A model generated the notes under the pieces. The model ran no database searches. It was not told where the DNA came from and saw nothing but the letters and a program-made list of their open reading frames with translations. A stretch of DNA of 64,000 nt from Myxococcota bacterium (GTDB taxonomy: Bacteria; Myxococcota; XYA12-FULL-58-9; JALHOP01). Within the stretch, counting starts at the first letter, position 1. Each line of letters opens with the position of its first letter. This document shows, in pieces, positions 30,362 to 63,832 of this stretch. Made by a program: the position numbers and the translations under genes. The stretch spans positions 1 to 64,000 of the forward strand of contig JBGGMJ010000082.1 of NCBI GenBank assembly GCA_041288095.1. The letters are read 5' to 3'.

Positions 30362-31752
30362 TTGCGCAACGTGGTTGCCAGCTCTTCGTAGAGGTGAATG
30401 GTCGACTTGGTAACGCGCTCCCAGTCACCGATGTGCTGCGACTCGTCGATACCGTGGATGTACGAATACGGGTCCTCGATGCCGAGCATGATCGCCGGCA
30501 CGCCGCCGAGCGCCTCGCAGAACGGACCGACGAAGGGAATCGATCCACCGGCGCCGAGAATCGTGGGCTCGCGGCCGAAGCCGGCTTGCAGCGAGCGCGC
30601 CGCCGCCTGGAACGCGGGATGCTCCGTCGAGCAATGCCACGCCGGCGACGCCTGGTGTCGGGTCACGGTGACCTGCGCGCCGAACGGGGGGTTCTCCTCG
30701 AGCTTCTTGACCAAAGCGTCTTGCGCCGCCTTGGGATCCTGGTCGGGCACCAAACGCACACCGACGCGGGCCCAGGCGCTCTCGACGAGGATGTTGCGAG
30801 CGTCCGCTCGAGAAGACGCCTGCATGGCGTTGATGGCGATGGTCGGCTTGCGCCAGATCGCCTCGAAGGGGCTCCCCTCGGTGGTGAGCGGGACGCCGTC
30901 GAGGATCCCCGACATCTTGCGGAAGCCGCTCTTGTCGATGGGCAGCTTCTCGAGCGAGGCACGCTCGGCCGCGTTCATCGGCATGACCTTCTCGTAGAAG
31001 CCCGGGAGATCGACGCTGCCGTCGTCCTTGGTAAGGCGCGCGAGGATCTTGCACAGGGCCATGGCGGCGTCGGGCAGCGGACCGCCCCACATGCCGGAGT
31101 GCAGCGGCCCCTTCAGAACCTTCACCTCGACATCGACGGCGGCCATGCCGCGCAGCGAGTTCGTGAGCGACGGGATGCCGGTGTCGATGTTCGCCGTGTC
31201 GGTGATGATGATGGCGTCGGCCTGCAGCCGATCGAGATGCTTATGTAAGAACTTCATCAAGTGCGCCGAGCCGATCTCTTCTTCGCCTTCGATGAGGAAC
31301 TTGAGATTCACCGGGAGCTTGCCGCCGCCGGCCTTGCGCCAGCTGTCGACCGCCGCCGCATGGATCGAGATGCCGACCTTGTCGTCCGAGGTGCCGCGCC
31401 CGTAGAGCCGGCCATTGCGCTCCGTCGGCGTGAAGGGCGGCGAGGTCCACTGCGAAGCATCGCCCGCCGGCTGCACGTCGTGGTGCGCGTACAGAAGTAG
31501 AGTCGGCGCCTTAGGATCAGCGACGACCTCCGCGAAAACGTACGGGTGCGCGTCATCGAGCGGCAGGATCTCGACCTTGTCGAAGCCACGCTTCTTGAGC
31601 AGGTCCGCGGTCGCTTGAGCGGACACCTTCATGTGGCTGTGGTCGAACCCCGGAAAAGAGATGCTCGGGATCGCGACCAGGGCCTTCAGATCTTCCAAGT
31701 AATCGCGGCGGTTTGCGTCAAAATGGGCGGCGGCTTTGGCGGCATTCGACAT
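30358..31752 (-). CDS. M20 family metallopeptidase (dipeptidase-like)
   Basis: YAHHDVQP, YGRGTSDDK, EGEEEIGS, LHSG, GGSIP, HGIDE. Confidence 0.92.
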   Translation of the reverse strand: MSNAAKAAAHFDANRRDYLEDLKALVAIPSISFPGFDHSHMKVSAQATADLLKKRGFDKVEILPLDDAHPYVFAEVVADPKAPTLLLYAHHDVQPAGDASQWTSPPFTPTERNGRLYGRGTSDDKVGISIHAAAVDSWRKAGGGKLPVNLKFLIEGEEEIGSAHLMKFLHKHLDRLQADAIIITDTANIDTGIPSLTNSLRGMAAVDVEVKVLKGPLHSGMWGGPLPDAAMALCKILARLTKDDGSVDLPGFYEKVMPMNAAERASLEKLPIDKSGFRKMSGILDGVPLTTEGSPFEAIWRKPTIAINAMQASSRADARNILVESAWARVGVRLVPDQDPKAAQDALVKKLEENPPFGAQVTVTRHQASPAWHCSTEHPAFQAAARSLQAGFGREPTILGAGGSIPFVGPFCEALGGVPAIMLGIEDPYSYIHGIDESQHIGDWERVTKSTIHLYEELATTLRK

Positions 31753-31832
31753 GCGGGAGGCGTAGCAAGGCGGATACCCGGGCGCAATATGTGGCCAAGA
31801 GGCCACAGGTCATGGTAAGCCCTGTGAATCAC

Positions 31833-33260
31833 ATGGAAACCGATCCGAAGGCAGGCACGACGGGTCCCCTCCCTCGGCCACGCCAGACGACCATCGTCGC
31901 TGATCGCACGCAGATCCAGCTGCAACGGTGCAAGCTCGTCCAAATGACGGGCGGCGCCAAGGGCCGCGAGTTCGAGCTGTCGCGTCGTCGTGTCGTCGTG
32001 GGCTCGAGCGAGAGCTGTGACCTTCGCCTCACCGATAACACCGTTTCGAAAGAACATTTCGCCATCATCCGGGACGAGCAGAGCTACCTGCTGCAAGACC
32101 TGGGCAGCACCAACGGCACCTTCCTCGACAACGCGCGCATCAAAGAGGTCTATCTGCGACCCGGCGCGCTCATCAAAGCCGGCGAGGTCTTCTTCCGCTT
32201 CGAGCCGGTCTACGAGCGCATCGAGCTCGTGCCCTCCGACCGGGCCGACTTCGCGGGCCTACTCGGCGTCTCGTTCCGCATGCGCGAGATCTTCACCGTG
32301 CTCGAGAAGGTGGCCGCGACCGAGGCGACCATCCTCCTGCAAGGTGAGACCGGCACCGGCAAGGGCGCGGTCGCGCGCGCCATCCATCAGGCGTCGCTGC
32401 GCAAAGATCAAAAAATCGTCATCTTCGATTGCGGCGCCATCGCCCCGACGCTCATCGAGAGCGAGCTCTTCGGCCACGAACGCGGTGCTTTCACCGGCGC
32501 CGTGCAGCAACGCAAAGGCGCGCTCGAAGAGGCACAAGGCGGCACGCTCTTCATCGACGAGCTCGCTGAGTTGCCCCTCGAGCTGCAACCGAAGCTCTTG
32601 CGCGCCCTCGAAGAGCGCACCTTCACGCGCGTCGGCAGCAACAAGTCGATGAAGGTCGACTGCCGCGTCATCGCCGCCTCGCAGCGTGACCTCTGGACCG
32701 AAGTGTCCGCCGGCCGTTTCCGCGAAGACCTCTATTTCCGCCTCGCGGTCGTCACCATTCCCCTGCCGCCGCTGCGCGACCGCACCGAAGACATTCCGAT
32801 GCTGGTCGACGGCTTCATGAAGGACATCCCGCACTCGAAGGTGAAGACCTTCGACGAGCTACCGTCCGACATGCAGCGCAAGCTCCTCTCGCACGATTGG
32901 CCGGGCAACATCCGCGAGCTGCGCAACACCGTCGAGCGCATGGCGCTCATGGACGGCGCCGACCCATTCATGCGCCGGCCGCAGCGGCTCGATGGCACCG
33001 TCGCAGGTGCCCCAGGCGGAGCCCCAGCCCCAGGCAGCCCGCCCGCGGCCCCCTCTGGCAACCTCAGCGCCGACTACGACCTGCCCTTCAAAGACGCCAA
33101 GGACAACTTGGTCTCCGCCTTCGAGCGCGAGTACCTGACGCGGCTGTTGTCCCGCACCAGCAACAACATCGCGCGCGCGGCCCGCGAGGCGTCTATTGAC
33201 CGGAAGTACCTCTACACTCTACTCGCGAAGCACGGTCTGTCCGGCAACGACGACTCATGA
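31833..33260 (+). CDS. FHA-domain sigma54 enhancer-binding protein
   Basis: FHA (VSKEH, DLGSTNGT), GETGTGK, GAFTGA, WPGNIREL, Fis-type HTH. Confidence 0.93.
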   Translation: METDPKAGTTGPLPRPRQTTIVADRTQIQLQRCKLVQMTGGAKGREFELSRRRVVVGSSESCDLRLTDNTVSKEHFAIIRDEQSYLLQDLGSTNGTFLDNARIKEVYLRPGALIKAGEVFFRFEPVYERIELVPSDRADFAGLLGVSFRMREIFTVLEKVAATEATILLQGETGTGKGAVARAIHQASLRKDQKIVIFDCGAIAPTLIESELFGHERGAFTGAVQQRKGALEEAQGGTLFIDELAELPLELQPKLLRALEERTFTRVGSNKSMKVDCRVIAASQRDLWTEVSAGRFREDLYFRLAVVTIPLPPLRDRTEDIPMLVDGFMKDIPHSKVKTFDELPSDMQRKLLSHDWPGNIRELRNTVERMALMDGADPFMRRPQRLDGTVAGAPGGAPAPGSPPAAPSGNLSADYDLPFKDAKDNLVSAFEREYLTRLLSRTSNNIARAAREASIDRKYLYTLLAKHGLSGNDDS

Positions 33261-33989: not shown

Positions 33990-34523
33990 ATGGCCTCTAT
34001 TTCGAATTCGCCCGTCACCACCGCTGACCTACGCGACCGCGCCTGGGACGCCCTCGGCGCCCACTTCCTGTTACCCCGCGACCTAAGCCTCCTTCAGGAA
34101 GGCGTGGCGACCAAGAAGAGCCTCGCGACCGCGAAGGCCGCTCTCGCCGAGACCGAAAAGCTGGCGGCAATGACGGCCCCCGGCGCCGCCGATTCGAGCC
34201 ATCAGTTCGACCGCGTGACCATCACCGTTTGGGGACCGGACCCGTGGAAGGTCACCGTCGCCGGCGACACGGTCGACGCCGTCGTGAACGAGCGCCGGGA
34301 ACGCAAGTACCTCGGCGGTCTGTTCACGCACACCGAGACCAACGACATGAGATCCAAGGGTGAGCGCGCCAACGTCCACGAGTGGGCGTCCAAGGCCGCC
34401 ACCGCCGGGCAGCGCCTGGTCGGCGCCATCGAGTCGCGCCTCGCGGCCCAAAGCGGCATAGAAACGGCGCTCGCCGGTGTCCGCGAACGCGTCGAGCCCG
34501 TGCTGGACCGCATCCGCCGCTGA
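33990..34523 (+). CDS. Orphan protein, paralog A (paralog of 38133..38669)
   Basis: GGAG RBS; shares EKLAAMTAPGAxDSS, VTVxGDxVxA, VGAIExxLAAQxGxETALxGV with 38133. Confidence 0.85.
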   Translation: MASISNSPVTTADLRDRAWDALGAHFLLPRDLSLLQEGVATKKSLATAKAALAETEKLAAMTAPGAADSSHQFDRVTITVWGPDPWKVTVAGDTVDAVVNERRERKYLGGLFTHTETNDMRSKGERANVHEWASKAATAGQRLVGAIESRLAAQSGIETALAGVRERVEPVLDRIRR

Positions 34524-34525
34524 GC

Positions 34526-35551
34526 TTATTCGCCCGGCGCGTGGATACCGTGACGCCGCAGCAAGTCGGCAAGGTGACCTCGGTCCATGTCGGCGAGCCT
34601 TGCCGCCTTCGAGACGTTGCCGTGACAGTGCTCGTAGAGCTGCTTCAAGTAGCTGCGCTCGAAGTACGAGATCACCGCGGCGCGCGCTTTGTTGTAGCTG
34701 ACGATGGCGCCCTCTTCCGTGGTGTTGGCGACGGGGTCCGGCACCGTCCACACCACGCTCGGATTCTCGAGCGCCGCGATGTGGTCGAAGACACCGTCGT
34801 CGCCCATGGTCACCGCGGCGTCGACGAGGTTGCGCAGCTCGCGAACGTTGCCCGGCCAGGAGTAGCCGAGCATCCGCTCCACCGTATCGTCCGGCACCAA
34901 CCGCTCTAGCGGACCGGTGTACCCAGCGCGCCGCGCGAAGTGACGGATGAGCACCGGAATATCCTCGGGGCGGTCGCGCAGCGCCGGTGTTTGCAGCACG
35001 ACGATGGCGAGGCGGTGATAGAGGTCTAGACGGAAGGTCTGCTTGCTGACGTCGGTGCGCAGGTTGCGGTTCGTCGCCGAGACGATGCGGGCCCGCAGTG
35101 CGATGTCGGTGTTGCCACCGATTCGCCGGAAGCTGCCGCGCTCGAGCACGCCGAGGAGCATCGCCTGCGACGCCGGCGGTAGCTCGCCGATCTCGTCGAG
35201 GAATACGGTGCCGTCACCCGCTTGCTCGAACGCGCCCGGGTGTCTGTCCACCGCGCCGGTGAAGGCGCCGCGCTCGTGGCCGAACAGCTCGCTACCGATC
35301 AGTGTCGGCGATAGCGAACCGCAATCGACGACCACGAACGGCTTGGCGGCCCGAGGGCTGAGCTCGTGAATAGCGCGTGCCACCAGCTCCTTGCCCGTGC
35401 CGGACTCGCCAGTGACCAGGATGGGGACCGATGCGCGCGCGCCCTTCTCGATGAGCGCGTGCAGGCGCTGCACTTGGGCGGAAACGCCCTTCAGACCCGC
35501 GAGCTCGGGGCGAGGTATCGTACATGCAGCCAATTCTACAGCGCGGCTCAT
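34526..35551 (-). CDS. Sigma54 activator lacking an N-terminal sensory domain (PspF/HrpR-like architecture)
   Basis: GESGTGKE, GAFTGA, DEIGEL, WPGNVREL, HTH; AAA+ domain begins about 20 aa from the start. Confidence 0.9.
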   Translation of the reverse strand: MSRAVELAACTIPRPELAGLKGVSAQVQRLHALIEKGARASVPILVTGESGTGKELVARAIHELSPRAAKPFVVVDCGSLSPTLIGSELFGHERGAFTGAVDRHPGAFEQAGDGTVFLDEIGELPPASQAMLLGVLERGSFRRIGGNTDIALRARIVSATNRNLRTDVSKQTFRLDLYHRLAIVVLQTPALRDRPEDIPVLIRHFARRAGYTGPLERLVPDDTVERMLGYSWPGNVRELRNLVDAAVTMGDDGVFDHIAALENPSVVWTVPDPVANTTEEGAIVSYNKARAAVISYFERSYLKQLYEHCHGNVSKAARLADMDRGHLADLLRRHGIHAPGE

Positions 35552-35585
35552 GCCTCGTCCCTCACGCCGAAGGTTACGGTGCCTA

Positions 35586-36524
35586 TCAGCCACTGATCTT
35601 GCGCACGACCGCCATAGCGGTGTCGTGCAGGACTTTGGAAATGTTCGACATCATCTGCAGCGTCTGCTGCTGCTTTTGCAGCATGTTCTGCAGATCGACA
35701 TTCGCTAGCTGCGCATCGTCACCAACGGAGTTGAGCTGTGATTCCAGATCGTCGATGAACCCGCTGAGCTCTTCCTTCGTTGGCCAAAGGTCGAGTCCGA
35801 CTTTGTCCTCTCTGATCGGGACCAACCTACCCTCGGCATCGAGCTGCGGGATGGAAGCCCACCGTGACACGGCTTCGGCCGCACCTGGGTAGCGCGGCAG
35901 CCCAAAGTTGGGGTTCGGCCGCCGAACGCCGTCGGCACCGACGATAGAACGATCCATATCGATGGCATCGAGCGGGAACTTGATGGGATTGTTTGCGTTT
36001 TCGCCGTCTTCGGGCGCCCCGGCGTTGTCCGACAGGGCCTTGCGCAGGCCGGTGATGTCGGTGCGGATCTTCTTCTTGAGGTCGTTATAAAAGGCGACCT
36101 TCTGGGCGTAAAAGTTCAGGTCTTCGGTGCTCGAAAGGTACGACTCGCGCAGCACCTGCTGGACGAGATCGTTCACGTCGCGCGTTCCCTTCACGCCCAG
36201 ACGGCCGACGAGCGCGGCGAAGTCATCCCGTGTGGTTTGATCGACCACAGCTGCGGTCGCGAGGCCCGCGGCGAACGCGCGAACTTCCCCGTCGCGGCCA
36301 AGCGCGGGCGGGTGAACGTCCGTGGTGCTCAGGCCATCCACCCGCGCTTGCGTCCGCACAAGCGCCAGCGACACAGGCGCGCGTTGCTCGTGGTCGACGG
36401 AGGCCGGGAGGGACGGCAGCTCACCCGTGTCCGGGATAGCGGTCTGCTCGCGAGCCGAGCCACCAACCTGCGACACGGAGCTGACCAAGCGAGACGAACG
36501 GGTAGATTGGACCTGCGACAGCAT
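35586..36524 (-). CDS. Putative T3SS tip/filament-type (Bsp22/EspA-like) protein
   Basis: GAGGAGG RBS; Ser-rich N-terminus, no signal peptide; C-terminus DDAQLANVDLQNMLQKQQQTLQMMSNISKVLHDTAMAVVRKISG. Confidence 0.6.
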   Translation of the reverse strand: MLSQVQSTRSSRLVSSVSQVGGSAREQTAIPDTGELPSLPASVDHEQRAPVSLALVRTQARVDGLSTTDVHPPALGRDGEVRAFAAGLATAAVVDQTTRDDFAALVGRLGVKGTRDVNDLVQQVLRESYLSSTEDLNFYAQKVAFYNDLKKKIRTDITGLRKALSDNAGAPEDGENANNPIKFPLDAIDMDRSIVGADGVRRPNPNFGLPRYPGAAEAVSRWASIPQLDAEGRLVPIREDKVGLDLWPTKEELSGFIDDLESQLNSVGDDAQLANVDLQNMLQKQQQTLQMMSNISKVLHDTAMAVVRKISG

Positions 36525-36564
36525 GGTGCCTCCTCGAGCAAACGGGGTTTGTACGAAGGGGCAC

Positions 36565-36580
36565 TGCAGGGGTTGGGCCG
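36565..36580 (-). promoter_or_regulatory. Possible sigma54 promoter for the 36524-34526 operon
   Basis: Minus strand CGGCCCAACCCCTGCA, GG-N10-GC, 40 nt upstream of ATG; imperfect consensus. Confidence 0.4.
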
Positions 36581-36727
36581 TCGGACATTTCCGTTGAGAT
36601 TCCGCGTTCGTGCGAGAAACCAGCCTCTCTGTTGCTGGGTCGACCCACCAGGGTCGCTGCCGCATGTTTCATGGCTCGACGCCGCTTCCTTGGCCTCGAC
36701 TCGGCGTCGTCGAGCGTAGAGTGCTCC

Positions 36728-38053
36728 ATGCGCAAGCTCCCCTTCGTCGTCCTCGTAGCGAGCGTGACCGCGTGCGGTGCGCCCGAAGGAGACAATCTCT
36801 CGTCCTGGGCAGTGCGGCTCACGAACGCGTCGCCGTCCGCATCGCAAGCCCAGGTGATCGCGGATCGCATCGGCTCGACCGATCCACTCGACGCGGCCTG
36901 GGGAGCCTACCTGGCCGGCGATTTGGGCCTGACCTCTATGGCGGACGCACTCGTCGGGCTCACGCGGGACGGCCCCCTGCTTCGGGGCGCGGCGCTCGAC
37001 GCGCTGGCTCGAGTCGGTGGCAGCATGCCCGATGCACGCCTGCGAGAGCTCATGCCGTTGGACCCAATGACCGCGATGGCGGTCGCGCTGCAAGAGCCGG
37101 CGGCGCATCGCGACCTCATCTTCGATGCCTTCGTGACCGCGCACGACACGCTGCCTGAAACCGTCGGCGACATGTTGGCCTCGTCGGATCTCGCGACCTG
37201 GCGGGCCTACGCCAACGCCCTTGGCTGGCTCCGCGACCGTGAATTCGCGGCGACCCTGCTGGCCAGCCTCGAAACGTCGATCGATGTCGAGGTCGTTTCA
37301 CCCGGCGATTTCATCGCTGGCTTCGGCTGCCGATGCGGTGGAGCGTTCGGCTCGTCCTGTCACGGCTTTGGCTACCAGCCCTTCACCGCCCTGCCTCCAG
37401 TCGGTACGTGGAGCATCCGCGAGGCGAATGACGACGCCTGCGTCGTACTCCTCCCCGGTCCGACTGACGTGTGTCTTGCGCGCGTCGAGGGGCGCTTCCA
37501 GGAGAGCGTGCGCGAGCGCGCCCTCGGAGGCTTACCTCTGCGTCACTGGGTGAGCAGCATCGGTCACGACGCGGCACTGGCGGCCGTGGATGACTACGGC
37601 GAGGACGACGGCGAGCTGCTCGACCCGCAAGCACCCGAGGAGGTGGAGGCAGTCGACGAGAACGATTTCGACGGCGCCGGTGAGCCCGAGTCTCCCAGCC
37701 CGGAGACGCGCGAAGCCTGCCCGGCCGACGCCACCATCGCGGACGGAAAGCTCGACGCGGTGGAGAGCCCTTTGAACGACGAGCTGCTCGCGTACCTCTC
37801 GGCACTCCAAGGTGAATCGCTCCGTTTCGACGGACGGTTGTCGGTCCGCCACGTCTGGACCGGCGAAGAGGCCTACCGCGCGCGGGTGGAGAGCCTGCGC
37901 GACCGGATTCGCGCGGCGCACGCCACGCTCGGGCGAGCGCTAGCCGACGCCTATCTGCTACCCGACGGCTATCACTCGATGGCCCCATCCATTCAGGTGT
38001 TCGCGACGGACGAACGCACCTGTGGCGCGACCTCGACGTTGCCCCGCCTCTGA
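36728..38053 (+). CDS. Hypothetical lipoprotein
   Basis: MRKLPFVVLVASVTAC lipobox; HEAT-like helices, Gly/Cys segment, acidic insert. Confidence 0.7.
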   Translation: MRKLPFVVLVASVTACGAPEGDNLSSWAVRLTNASPSASQAQVIADRIGSTDPLDAAWGAYLAGDLGLTSMADALVGLTRDGPLLRGAALDALARVGGSMPDARLRELMPLDPMTAMAVALQEPAAHRDLIFDAFVTAHDTLPETVGDMLASSDLATWRAYANALGWLRDREFAATLLASLETSIDVEVVSPGDFIAGFGCRCGGAFGSSCHGFGYQPFTALPPVGTWSIREANDDACVVLLPGPTDVCLARVEGRFQESVRERALGGLPLRHWVSSIGHDAALAAVDDYGEDDGELLDPQAPEEVEAVDENDFDGAGEPESPSPETREACPADATIADGKLDAVESPLNDELLAYLSALQGESLRFDGRLSVRHVWTGEEAYRARVESLRDRIRAAHATLGRALADAYLLPDGYHSMAPSIQVFATDERTCGATSTLPRL

Positions 38054-38132: not shown

Positions 38133-38669
38133 ATGTTGACGAGTATTGCCAGAAACCGTGACCTCACCGAAGAAGCCCTCACCGCCGCGGCGTTCGAAGC
38201 CCACGACAAGCGCCTGCTCGGCACGCAAGAGGTCAATCAGCTCATTCGTGGCCGGGCGACTCCGGCCGTCCTTCAAAGCGCGAAGCTTGCCCTCGCCGCG
38301 AACGAGAAGCTCGCCGCCATGACCGCGCCGGGGGCTCCGGACAGCAGCGCCACGCTGCAGGCGGCCGCCATCGGGTTCATCGGGCCGAAGGATTTCGCCG
38401 TCACCGTCACGGGCGACAAGGTCGAGGCGGCGAGCAATCGCAACGACGTCACCAAGTTCCTGTTCATCACGCGCACGAACACCAGCTCCCTCCAGATCGA
38501 GACGTCCCGCGCCGACGCGCACGCCGCGGCGACCACGGCCGTCGCCGCCGCCAAGCGTGTGGTTGGGGCCATCGAGGGGCAGCTCGCGGCCCAGGTCGGC
38601 GTCGAGACCGCGCTCTACGGCGTGATGGCGCGCACCGAGTCGTTGATCGAGCGCATCAAGGGGTTCTGA
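38133..38669 (+). CDS. Orphan protein, paralog B (paralog of 33990..34523)
   Basis: GGAG RBS; near-identical length (178 vs 177 aa) and collinear motifs. Confidence 0.85.
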   Translation: MLTSIARNRDLTEEALTAAAFEAHDKRLLGTQEVNQLIRGRATPAVLQSAKLALAANEKLAAMTAPGAPDSSATLQAAAIGFIGPKDFAVTVTGDKVEAASNRNDVTKFLFITRTNTSSLQIETSRADAHAAATTAVAAAKRVVGAIEGQLAAQVGVETALYGVMARTESLIERIKGF

Positions 38670-62992: not shown

Positions 62993-63832
62993 ATGGATTC
63001 GGTGCGCGCCCGTATCAAGGAGCTCTCCCGCGCCGTCGCCGAGGGGCGGCTGGCGCTCGCCGAGATCGCGGCCATTTCGCCGGACGAGCTCGACGCCATC
63101 TACGAAACCGCGGTGATGCGCCTCGATGTCGGTCGCTACGCCGACGCGGCACGCATGCTCGCGTCCCTGGTGGTGCTCTACCCTTTCGCCTGCGAGTACT
63201 GGCGAGCGTACGCTATCGCGCTCAAGCTCCTCGGTGAGACAGCCGCGGCGCAACGCGCTCAAGCGATGGTGCGGTCGCTCGACCCAGGTACACCCGAAGA
63301 GCTGGTGCGTGAGCTGTTGGGGGACCACAAAGTCGATGAGCCCACCAACCCGCGCATCGAGAACAAGCCCGAGATCACCGCCATGGTCGACCTCGGCGAT
63401 ATCTCACCTCGCCGCGGCGCCCCGGGCGAGACCACGGAGCCGCGTATCCAGGTGACACCGGTGCGGCTGGGCGACCACGGCACCACGACGCAATCGATGA
63501 CGGTCCGTCCCGAGATCACGGTGACGGCGGTGCCGAACGCGCCCATGGTCCAGCACGAGCCGACCGAGCGCATCCACTGGCCCATCGAGGAGGAACCGAC
63601 GGCCCTCAATATCCGACCCGGTGTCCCGACCCAGCCGCGTCCCATGAAGCGCGAGCGCAGCGTGACCGCTTTGGTGGACAGGCGGCCCCGACCCATCGAG
63701 AGCGGCGGCGACACGGCGCGCATCGACCGGCGCTTCCGCAGGCGCGTCATGGAGACCGGGCCGGCCGCCGACGATAGCCTCACGGCGGTCATCCGGCGCC
63801 GTAAGGGCCTGCCGCTCGGAGAAGACGCATGA
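62993..63832 (+). CDS. SycD/LcrH-like TPR chaperone domain with Thr-rich disordered tail
   Basis: LAEIAAISPDELDAIYETAV..LDVGRYADA..L..LVVLYP...YW matches class II T3SS chaperone pattern. Confidence 0.65.
   Translation: MDSVRARIKELSRAVAEGRLALAEIAAISPDELDAIYETAVMRLDVGRYADAARMLASLVVLYPFACEYWRAYAIALKLLGETAAAQRAQAMVRSLDPGTPEELVRELLGDHKVDEPTNPRIENKPEITAMVDLGDISPRRGAPGETTEPRIQVTPVRLGDHGTTTQSMTVRPEITVTAVPNAPMVQHEPTERIHWPIEEEPTALNIRPGVPTQPRPMKRERSVTALVDRRPRPIESGGDTARIDRRFRRRVMETGPAADDSLTAVIRRRKGLPLGEDA

Follow-up and report, generated by a model that had tools for sequence, protein, structure and literature searches.

A family of helical hairpin proteins with a needle-type C-terminal helix in Myxococcota, and a member encoded next to a sensor-less sigma-54 activator

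We analysed a stretch of 64,000 nucleotides from a Myxococcota genome (contig JBGGMJ010000082.1 of assembly GCA_041288095.1, positions 1 to 64,000, hereafter the window), and in it a pair of minus-strand genes that encode a 312-residue protein, P0001, and a sensor-less sigma-54 activator of 341 residues, P0002. P0001 is one member of a new and very large family of proteins, unnamed and invisible to Pfam and NCBIfam. By sequence comparison, its C-terminal helix is related to that of the needle and tip proteins of type III secretion systems (T3SS), transitively, through chains of profiles. The reading that we favour, at a likelihood that we place a little short of even, is that P0001 is a type III substrate of the tip/filament class, one of a set of interchangeable paralogs, with a needle-type docking helix, an outward insert, its own sigma-54/activator loop, and possibly a role as an exported brake on that loop.

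The gene for P0001 occupies positions 35586..36524 of the minus strand (stop codon included), and its translation ends exactly in the C-terminal string quoted for a 312-residue protein in the original prediction, which had been made from the letters of the window and had proposed a filament or tip protein similar to Bsp22 and EspA. A ribosome site, GAGGAGG at 36535-36529, lies 5′ of the ATG. A frame of 359 residues starting at an upstream ATG was rejected, because there is a 1-nt indel relative to the ortholog and it is the inner ATG that has the strong ribosome site. The activator gene (34526..35551, minus strand, stop codon included), recognised by its Pfam match and its GAFTGA motif, starts 35 nt downstream of the hairpin-gene stop. 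No terminator-like site was found in this gap, and the scan placed one terminator-like hairpin 3′ of the activator gene (34467..34490, minus strand); with four such sites counted in the 5-kb region, where 2.6 would be expected, they are weak evidence. Because the 35-nt gap holds no terminator and the same gene pair is found in one related genome, the sequence indicates that the two genes are very probably co-transcribed.

The AlphaFold2 model of P0001, computed with an alignment of 104 rows, has a mean pLDDT of 74.4. It begins with 72 disordered residues, rich in Ser, Thr and Gln and with pLDDT <50 (36309..36524), and continues with two short helices. A long helix then spans residues 114-166 (36027..36185), with nearly invariant columns from D116 to R161, and a variable stretch, residues 167-249 (35778..36026), forms a small beta domain with short strands at 193-242. 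The chain ends with the C helix, residues 250-311 (35592..35777), identified by its column identity and by the profile links described below. The modelled architecture is a long antiparallel helical hairpin with the insert at its tip: the central coiled coil that had been announced is the pairing of the long central helix with the C-terminal one. No Sec signal was seen, and the disordered N-terminus would be the candidate type III export signal.

Relatives of P0001 were found in 1602 representative clusters at E<=0.001, 1014 of them at <=1e-10. At the level of 90% clusters there were 880 relatives, and among the 120 listed all source-given names were 'hypothetical'. Matches fall in two stretches, the N helix (query ~110-170) and the last ~65 residues, and the stretch between the two helices varies from ~30 to >1000 residues across the family. 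Members share one plan, in which a disordered N-terminus leads to the N helix and a variable insert separates this helix from a C helix of extreme conservation. In the C-terminal 66 residues (profile A2), mean column identity is 74% over 52 diverse members, and polar residues are near-invariant along ~45 residues of the helix. Recognisable inserts occur as well: among the 120 listed relatives, 13 contain DUF1521 and 11 contain PF26745, and EF-hands are also encountered. DUF1521 is described, in a passage of PMC6506597, as a domain of the type III-secreted proteins NopE1 and VIC_001052. A Sec-like or hydrophobic N-terminal stretch was present in none of 44 Myxococcota-type members. The family is present in each of the 22 genomes of the window's order (1-13 matches per genome), and the idea of a standalone module has to be given up, P0001 being one copy of a multi-copy family. 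In a sample of 401 genomes of the phylum, strong matches were confined to the window's order; outside the order, 33 of 379 genomes gave weak matches only, between 2.5e-8 and 9.5e-6. We found no description of the family in the literature, which is weak evidence of absence, a full-text search being unable to find a nameless family.

The link to needle and tip proteins comes from the C-termini. In the window's order, the extreme C-termini of proteins of 280-540 residues gave sub-threshold matches to the needle family PF09392 at 19 places in 14 of the 22 genomes (18-27 bits, for a cut-off of 29.4), and no PF09392 match at the E-value of these C-termini was found in the control genomes. A profile was built from the aligned C-termini of the 280-540-residue paralog families of the order (A5). 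Compared by hhalign, A2 and A5 matched at 98.7%, with an E-value of 4.6e-16 over 63 columns. Searched against PDB sequences, A5 gave 34 matches at E<=10, nearly all of them T3SS needle or tip chains. The best were 7y6c_F (1.1e-6), a PrgI-SipD fusion (6.7e-5), YscF (8.9e-5) and PscF (0.0093); SipD, MxiH, BsaL-type, IpaD and PrgI chains were also matched, the C-helices of SipD and IpaD at E 0.02-0.3. Two open reading frames were matched by both A2 and PF09392, one on G386:C48 (5.8e-9 and 1.6e-4) and one on G401:C172 (1.8e-12 and 0.009).

A second chain passes through small genes found inside T3SS clusters. The nearest relatives of the family in the phylum outside the order are four tandem genes, encoding proteins of 74-76 residues, located within T3SS clusters between sctU and sctV in two large Myxococcota genomes. 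Compared with one of these proteins, of 76 residues, A2 gave 93.9% and an E-value of 1.6e-7 by hhalign, and a profile of the 74-76-residue proteins matched the needle-complex chain 7y6c_F in the PDB at 0.0021. On this sequence evidence, the tandem genes have the look of needle genes that escaped annotation, and this in a group credited with needle-less systems. The claim of a C-terminal helix like that of needle and tip subunits holds through these chains (A2 to A5 to the PDB, and the 76-residue proteins of T3SS clusters); as a direct match it fails. The two tandem loci lie at 7680-11819 of L151 (G654:C1:7123000-7141000) and 5675-7190 of L152 (G441:C5:29000-42000), and their 74-76-residue proteins have no Pfam match. 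Around them the clusters encode SctQ/R/S/T/U and SctV and an FHA-SctD protein; genes resembling tetratricopeptide repeat (TPR) chaperones flank the tandem, and one of the clusters includes a 350-residue DUF1521 protein.

The genome to which the window belongs encodes an export apparatus. SctR/S/T, a FliM/FliN-type SctQ, a YscO-like protein, SctL (FliH), SctJ, SctU and SctV were found, as was an ATPase (SctN) with an EscN C-terminal domain. All these genes sit on other contigs, the P0001 gene standing, as predicted, away from the apparatus locus. The SctJ-type ring protein is short and the C-terminal domain of the ATPase is of T3SS type; no flagellar rod, hook or motor family was found among the apparatus matches, and no secretin gene in the apparatus cluster. 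The export gate, FHIPEP, is present in 22 of 22 genomes of the order, and PF09392 above its cut-off in 0 of 22. On the contig of the apparatus cluster (C92 of the window genome, G000), a 185-residue protein (G000:C92:37386-37943, minus strand; L107:7386-7943) has a needle-like C-terminus, matched by the hidden Markov model of the family C helix at E 0.041, and is on sequence grounds the likeliest needle-type gene of this genome. Beside it are a 138-residue TPR protein (G000:C92:36795-37211, minus strand; L107:6795-7211) with matches to LcrH (1.8e-9) and CdsG (6.3e-5), and then a sigma-70-family gene. The same contig encodes a 340-residue protein with weak FliG middle, N and C matches (G000:C92:21671-22693, minus strand; L020:2671-3693), between SctJ and the remaining apparatus cluster, which is unusual for a non-flagellar system.

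Several paralogs of P0001 are neighbours of putative type III chaperones. In the window genome, paralogs on contigs C181, C10, C210 and C203 adjoin TPR proteins that match the SycD/LcrH model TIGR02552 at 3.7e-26, 2.3e-23, 7.3e-4 and 3e-38 respectively; the C203 match, at 130.6 bits, is above the cut-off of the model. The C181 paralog is 55% identical to P0001. More generally, 10 of 40 Myxococcota-type loci have a small LcrH-like TPR gene no more than 3 kb away from the family member. The C203 locus (G000:C203:33000-45081, L014) resembles a translocon operon: a divergent family member of 393 residues is followed by a 379-residue TPR protein and an SseC-family protein (8.5e-11), and at the end of the operon are four large proteins without any family match. 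At C181 (G000:C181:24000-43000, L010; L030-L040), the operon encodes an LcrH-like TPR protein, a 242-residue protein, a 270-residue coiled-coil protein, the family member and a 797-residue hydrophilic protein, and this arrangement recurs in at least 10 related loci. PilX, PilY1 and GspH-like pilin genes adjoin the C181-type operon in 7 related loci, an adjacency that may, by analogy, recall the partnership of pilus and T3SS*, or be simple synteny instead. Downstream of the C181 operon is a gene for a 174-residue protein made largely of Met/Gly/Pro/Asn repeats, with M-N-P-M-M-M runs and no family match (G000:C181:29800-30324, minus strand; L010:5801-6325). In another genome, G322, family members are 16-20 kb from sctV, though outside any T3SS cluster.

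Inserts of such variety, next to chaperone genes, are also what would be expected of polymorphic type III cargo. In that case the two helices would be a needle-mimicking handle for export or chaperone binding, the middle of the protein would be the payload (effector, adhesin or enzyme), and no polymerisation would take place. The range of insert lengths and the 1-13 copies per genome fit this explanation, as do the DUF1521, PF26745 and EF-hand inserts, the first of which, following the same passage of PMC6506597, belongs to proteins secreted by the type III route. It agrees less well with P0001 itself, whose insert of ~80 residues contains no recognisable domain, or with the short homologs that have no payload at all, and the near-invariant polar residues over ~45 residues of the C helix fit an assembly interface better than a handle. 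We regard it as unlikely.

P0002 combines a Sigma54_activat domain (PF00158, 8.9e-61, residues 22-186), an AAA_lid_14 domain and, in its translation, a GAFTGA loop; a weak Fis-type helix-turn-helix, HTH_8, was detected at E 0.0012 and 19.0 bits for a cut-off of 22. In the Pfam search the AAA+ domain starts at residue 22 and no N-terminal regulatory domain was found, which bears out the description of an activator without input domain directly downstream of the hairpin gene. The nearest paralogs of P0002 in its own genome are 67% and 62% identical and ~485 residues long, with ~150 extra N-terminal residues that are of FHA type by sequence. One related genome has the same pair of genes together with the divergent lipoprotein gene described below (hairpin protein 70%, activator 88% identical). 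Two other genomes of the genus have no P0002, and the best matches there are FHA-type activators of ~485 residues. Since its best matches in these genomes, like its nearest paralogs in its own genome, are of this FHA type, P0002 is, as read from sequence, a recent offshoot of the FHA activators that has lost its input domain.

Upstream of the pair, a candidate -24/-12 sigma-54 promoter, CGGCCCAACCCCTGCA, was read by consensus at 36565..36580 (minus strand), a plausible position; its GG and GC are kept in the one ortholog, but the identity of the region as a whole is 85%. Some ~85 bp upstream of the putative transcription start, at 36633..36650, is an 18-bp near-palindrome around GGGTCGACCC; it lies in a block almost unchanged in the ortholog, with diverged flanks. 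Its 12-bp core is present as a single copy in the genome, and the near-palindrome is likely, from its position and conservation, to be a binding site of the activator. When the activator was modelled together with the hairpin protein (residues 73-312), the predicted complex scored 0.53 (runs at 0.53, 0.55 and 0.32), the best of three controls reaching 0.03; these runs, which used custom alignments, had a contact agreement of at least 62% and a partner pLDDT of at least 73. Of 157 solved complexes, 116 attain that mark, against 2 of 215 mismatched pairs, but only 18 of the 157 solved complexes reach it while staying <=0.60, as do both passing mismatches, and by the reckoning of the prediction tool itself a pass at such a score is more often wrong than right unless the pairing is likely beforehand. 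The model hints, weakly, that the hairpin protein binds the activator.

In the reading that we favour, family proteins would be exported through their disordered N-terminus, and in most paralog loci they would have SycD/LcrH-type chaperones to keep them. Once outside the cell, the hairpin would attach to a needle-like axial structure or extend it by polymerisation, with the variable insert at the hairpin tip pointing outward, so that each protein would serve as an exchangeable tip or filament subunit. As for its control, the sigma-54 promoter and the upstream palindrome would drive the hairpin gene and, in the same transcript, the FHA-less activator. The unit would then switch itself on, its own activator being encoded in the transcript. 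Until its export, the hairpin protein may hold the activator in check by binding to it.

A number of observations weigh against this reading. Neither P0001 (by phmmer) nor its full-length profile A1 matched any PDB sequence at E<=10, and at E<=1 P0001 matched neither PF09392 (needle) nor PF03433 (EspA/SseB). Nothing usable came from searches of Pfam (E<=1), NCBIfam, PHROGs and PADLOC, where the top match was DUF1664 at E 0.046, and P0001 had no match to the flagellin families of Pfam; as a direct identification, the proposed EspA-like or needle identity finds nothing in Pfam, NCBIfam or PDB searches. The C-helix profile A2, searched directly against the PDB, gave a best E-value of only 0.22. 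Needle seeds came from a sample of a gammaproteobacterial class, where PF09392 was found in 1 of 300 genomes and a search from that needle led to 3 proteins. When four genuine needle proteins (from an environmental genome) were used as a profile, A5 scored 12% (E 0.0023) and A2 0.6%, i.e. nothing, a profile of 4 rows being too narrow. No chaperone gene was found adjoining the hairpin gene of the window. The joint presence of family and T3SS in the order speaks for compatibility and is no proof, because the genomes of the order are kin and offer no contrast.

Fold comparisons gave no help to the favoured reading either. Foldseek found nothing in the PDB at E<=0.001 with the P0001 model, and the EspA filament subunit, 7khw_A, came at rank 37 (E 1.4, TM-scores 0.23/0.34), inseparable from other hairpins. 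A wide fold search with VIA returned helical look-alikes, led by the stressosome at Z 9.0, with Mediator and KaiA next at 8.5. In a second VIA comparison, Vipp1 filaments came on top (Z 7.6, root-mean-square deviation 4.3, 129 residues aligned), tied with many others; prefoldin was at Z 6.7 and flagellins at Z 6.0-6.6 over ~150 residues, and the pore-forming toxins PaxB/XaxB, AhlC and MakA were also present as weak rows. Because such Z values are usual for any long helical hairpin, the fold searches are uninformative at the level of models: EspA and flagellins do appear among the rows, but at ranks that cannot be separated from those of Vipp1, prefoldin and toxins. In a language-model neighbour cluster of P0001, EspA was present in 12% of members (score 0.93).

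The control loop meets with objections of its own. CGGCCCAACCCCTGCA (36580-36565, minus strand) agrees with 8 of 11 consensus positions, and 6815 sites of the genome score as well or better, which puts the predicted -24/-12 motif at chance level by count. In the window, 172 occurrences of GG-N10-GCA were counted where shuffles predict 208, so that the pattern is, if anything, rarer than by chance, and sigma-54 consensus scans upstream of the paralog operons gave no better sites. Pairing with the activator is limited to 2 of 4 genomes of the genus. The proposed positive feedback, or coupling of control to secretion, keeps in its favour the predicted complex with the activator, which is weak, and suffers from this restricted pairing.

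The most serious objection comes from organisms without a T3SS. Among related loci in species-representative genomes, 37 of 77 are labelled outside Myxococcota and its old synonyms (our own grouping): Bacteroidota, three Thorarchaeota, Thermoplasmatota, Actinomycetota, Acidobacteriota, Armatimonadota, Nitrospirota and others, some on contigs of ~1 Mb. These members are short (147-270 residues), have Sec-type N-termini in 10 of 27 cases, and their neighbour genes are not conserved. Sec-type homologs occur in Bacteroidota, Gemmatimonadota, Proteobacteria and Armatimonadota, and core-only forms in Actinomycetota, Acidobacteriota and archaea; the Thorarchaeota members start with a zinc ribbon and stand beside ribosomal and translation genes. 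In a midpoint-rooted tree of 32 core sequences, for which supports were not considered, the non-Myxococcota copies fall in several places. FHIPEP was found in none of 5 genomes from Rikenellaceae, Thorarchaeota, Actinomycetes, Bacteroidales and Saprospiraceae, and in 4 of 5 proteobacterial genomes that bear the family. With FHIPEP missing from 6 of the 10 non-Myxococcota family-bearing genomes tested, the hairpin module therefore works somewhere without a T3SS. The supposition that homologs co-occur with type III export genes is borne out in the order, where 22 of 22 genomes have both; it does not extend to all homologs, some of which are in genomes without FHIPEP. In a Nitrospirota metagenome-assembled genome (L100:8444-13114) and a Chthonomonadales one (L098:10073-11095), a short family member is located among genes with T4 gp19 tail-tube domains, and L100 also has an Hcp gene; going by sequence, these neighbourhoods could hint at a link with a contractile injection system there.

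This distribution brings up a hairpin that owes nothing to the secretion route: a self-assembling or membrane-active module, either a surface fibre or akin to alpha-pore-forming toxins, that was expanded in the window's order, its likeness to needles being remote or convergent. The Sec-type homologs in several phyla, the core-only forms in archaea and elsewhere, the genomes devoid of FHIPEP and the weak PaxB/XaxB, AhlC and MakA rows are all accommodated by such a module. It would leave unaccounted for the chain of profiles leading to needle and tip proteins, and also to the small genes of T3SS clusters, as well as the SycD/LcrH-type chaperone neighbours; moreover, none of the 44 Myxococcota-type members has a Sec signal, and no transmembrane stretch was predicted in the neighbours examined. 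We judge this explanation quite unlikely.

Partner-controlled sensor-less activators have precedents in PspA-PspF and HrpV-HrpS, and FlgM-sigma28 and ExsE are examples of secretion-coupled regulators. A PspA- or HrpV-like cytoplasmic partner, whose hairpin would bind and silence the activator and release it on an envelope or contact signal without ever being exported, would suit the co-transcription with a sensor-less activator behind a sigma-54-like promoter, the weakly predicted complex and the Vipp1 filaments (of the PspA family) among the tied top VIA rows, but it is improbable, given that P0001 has no PspA_IM30 (PF04012) match at E<=1, that only 2 of the many family loci are paired with this activator, which makes regulation something other than the main role of the family, that many homologs are exported by a Sec signal, and that the C helix is of needle type and paralogs have chaperone neighbours.

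A bolder version of the favoured reading can be drawn, and we consider it a long shot. The myxobacterial T3SS that pass for needle-less would find in this family the axial parts that they seem to lack: flagellin-like exchangeable tip or filament subunits, inserted into a short needle by the needle-type helix, with a different outward domain for each paralog. The window copy would serve in addition as an anti-activator whose export tells its own sigma-54 switch that secretion has succeeded, and the short Sec-exported copies in Bacteroidota, archaea and other phyla would be captured decoys, capping or poisoning the needle of a predator.

The surroundings of the pair in the window are as follows. 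A divergent gene (36728..38053, plus strand) shares its intergenic region with the hairpin gene and encodes a lipoprotein-like protein of 441 residues, which has no family match in Pfam or NCBIfam and, in the related genome, a correspondingly placed ortholog of 63% identity. At 31713-33260 (plus strand), 1.3 kb from the unit, is the gene of another sigma-54 activator, whose N-terminal domains are of FHA and Yop-YscD_cpl type; it is conserved in the ortholog locus. The unit of hairpin, activator and lipoprotein genes is flanked by two paralogs, 43% identical to each other, of 177 and 178 residues (33990-34523 and 38133-38669, plus strand). They have no family match and no relatives among 5.8 billion clusters except the query's own entry, and in structure they weakly resemble WapI-type immunity clusters (TM 0.45). 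Being absent from the ortholog locus and without relatives or family, they were rejected as parts of the module. At 62993..63832 (plus strand) is a gene for a 279-residue protein that joins a partial SycD/LcrH-like N-terminal TPR part to a long tail: TIGR02552 matches it at 5.3e-10 and 39 bits, for a cut-off of 104.8, residues 20-105 corresponding to model positions 5-90 of 136. Finally, a public protein, P0006 (209 residues), fuses the first part of a relative of the hairpin protein with the last part of the activator, and probably reflects a deletion, or else faulty assembly, in a metagenome contig.

The family provides concrete candidates for the substrates and axial parts of myxobacterial T3SS; the tandem 74-76-residue genes in other Myxococcota T3SS clusters point the same way. 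As a possible case of sigma-54 control coupled to secretion, the operon with its input-less activator is simple and open to test. That the module has spread into organisms without a T3SS either limits the favoured reading or hides a second biology.

Among known systems, the needle subunit SctF (PrgI, MxiH, YscF, PscF; PF09392) is similar to P0001 in being a helical hairpin with, through profile chains, the same type of C-terminal helix, over ~40 residues. It differs in size, ~70-90 residues against 312, P0001 having an inserted domain of ~80 residues and a disordered N-terminus of 72. The family is also present in 1-13 copies per genome, and P0001 has no PF09392 match, is encoded outside the apparatus cluster and has no adjoining chaperone gene. 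Tip and filament proteins, SctA (EspA/SseB, PF03433; Bsp22; SipD/IpaD/LcrV), are likewise larger proteins, which sit on the needle by a needle-like coiled coil. The C203 paralog belongs to a chaperone/translocator operon of the corresponding kind, with an LcrH-type TPR protein and an SseC-family protein; the window gene does not. The size of the P0001 family, the variety of its inserts and its spread beyond T3SS-bearing organisms are without parallel in SctA.

Flagellin (FliC) shares the pairing of conserved terminal helices into a hairpin, with a hypervariable middle domain, and is set apart by the absence of a flagellin Pfam match in P0001 and by Z values that are those expected for any long hairpin. 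With PspF-PspA and HrpS-HrpV, the resemblance is in P0002, reduced to AAA+ and DNA-binding parts and encoded beside a helical protein that is weakly predicted to bind it. Unlike these systems, P0001 is very probably co-transcribed upstream of the activator and has no PspA or HrpV family match, and the activator is an FHA-less offshoot.

The last comparison is with the needle-less T3SS* of Myxococcus and Bradymonabacteria. Myxococcales systems lack secretin, SctF, tip and translocon according to passages of Abby and Rocha 2012 (PMC3459982), with the remark that SctF 'should have been found'; according to a passage of Herrou et al. 2025 (PMC12075869), the 'needleless' T3SS* works with Tad-pilus tips, and in part of Wang et al. 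2024 (PMC11509652) the same needleless state is assumed for bradymonabacteria. To go by these passages, the systems of the window's order are alike in having no recognisable SctF (0 of 22 genomes above the cut-off) and no secretin in the apparatus cluster. They are unlike in that the order has several needle-helix proteins, LcrH-type chaperones and an SseC-family protein, and because of these, as judged from their sequences, the T3SS of this order are probably not without axial or translocon parts.

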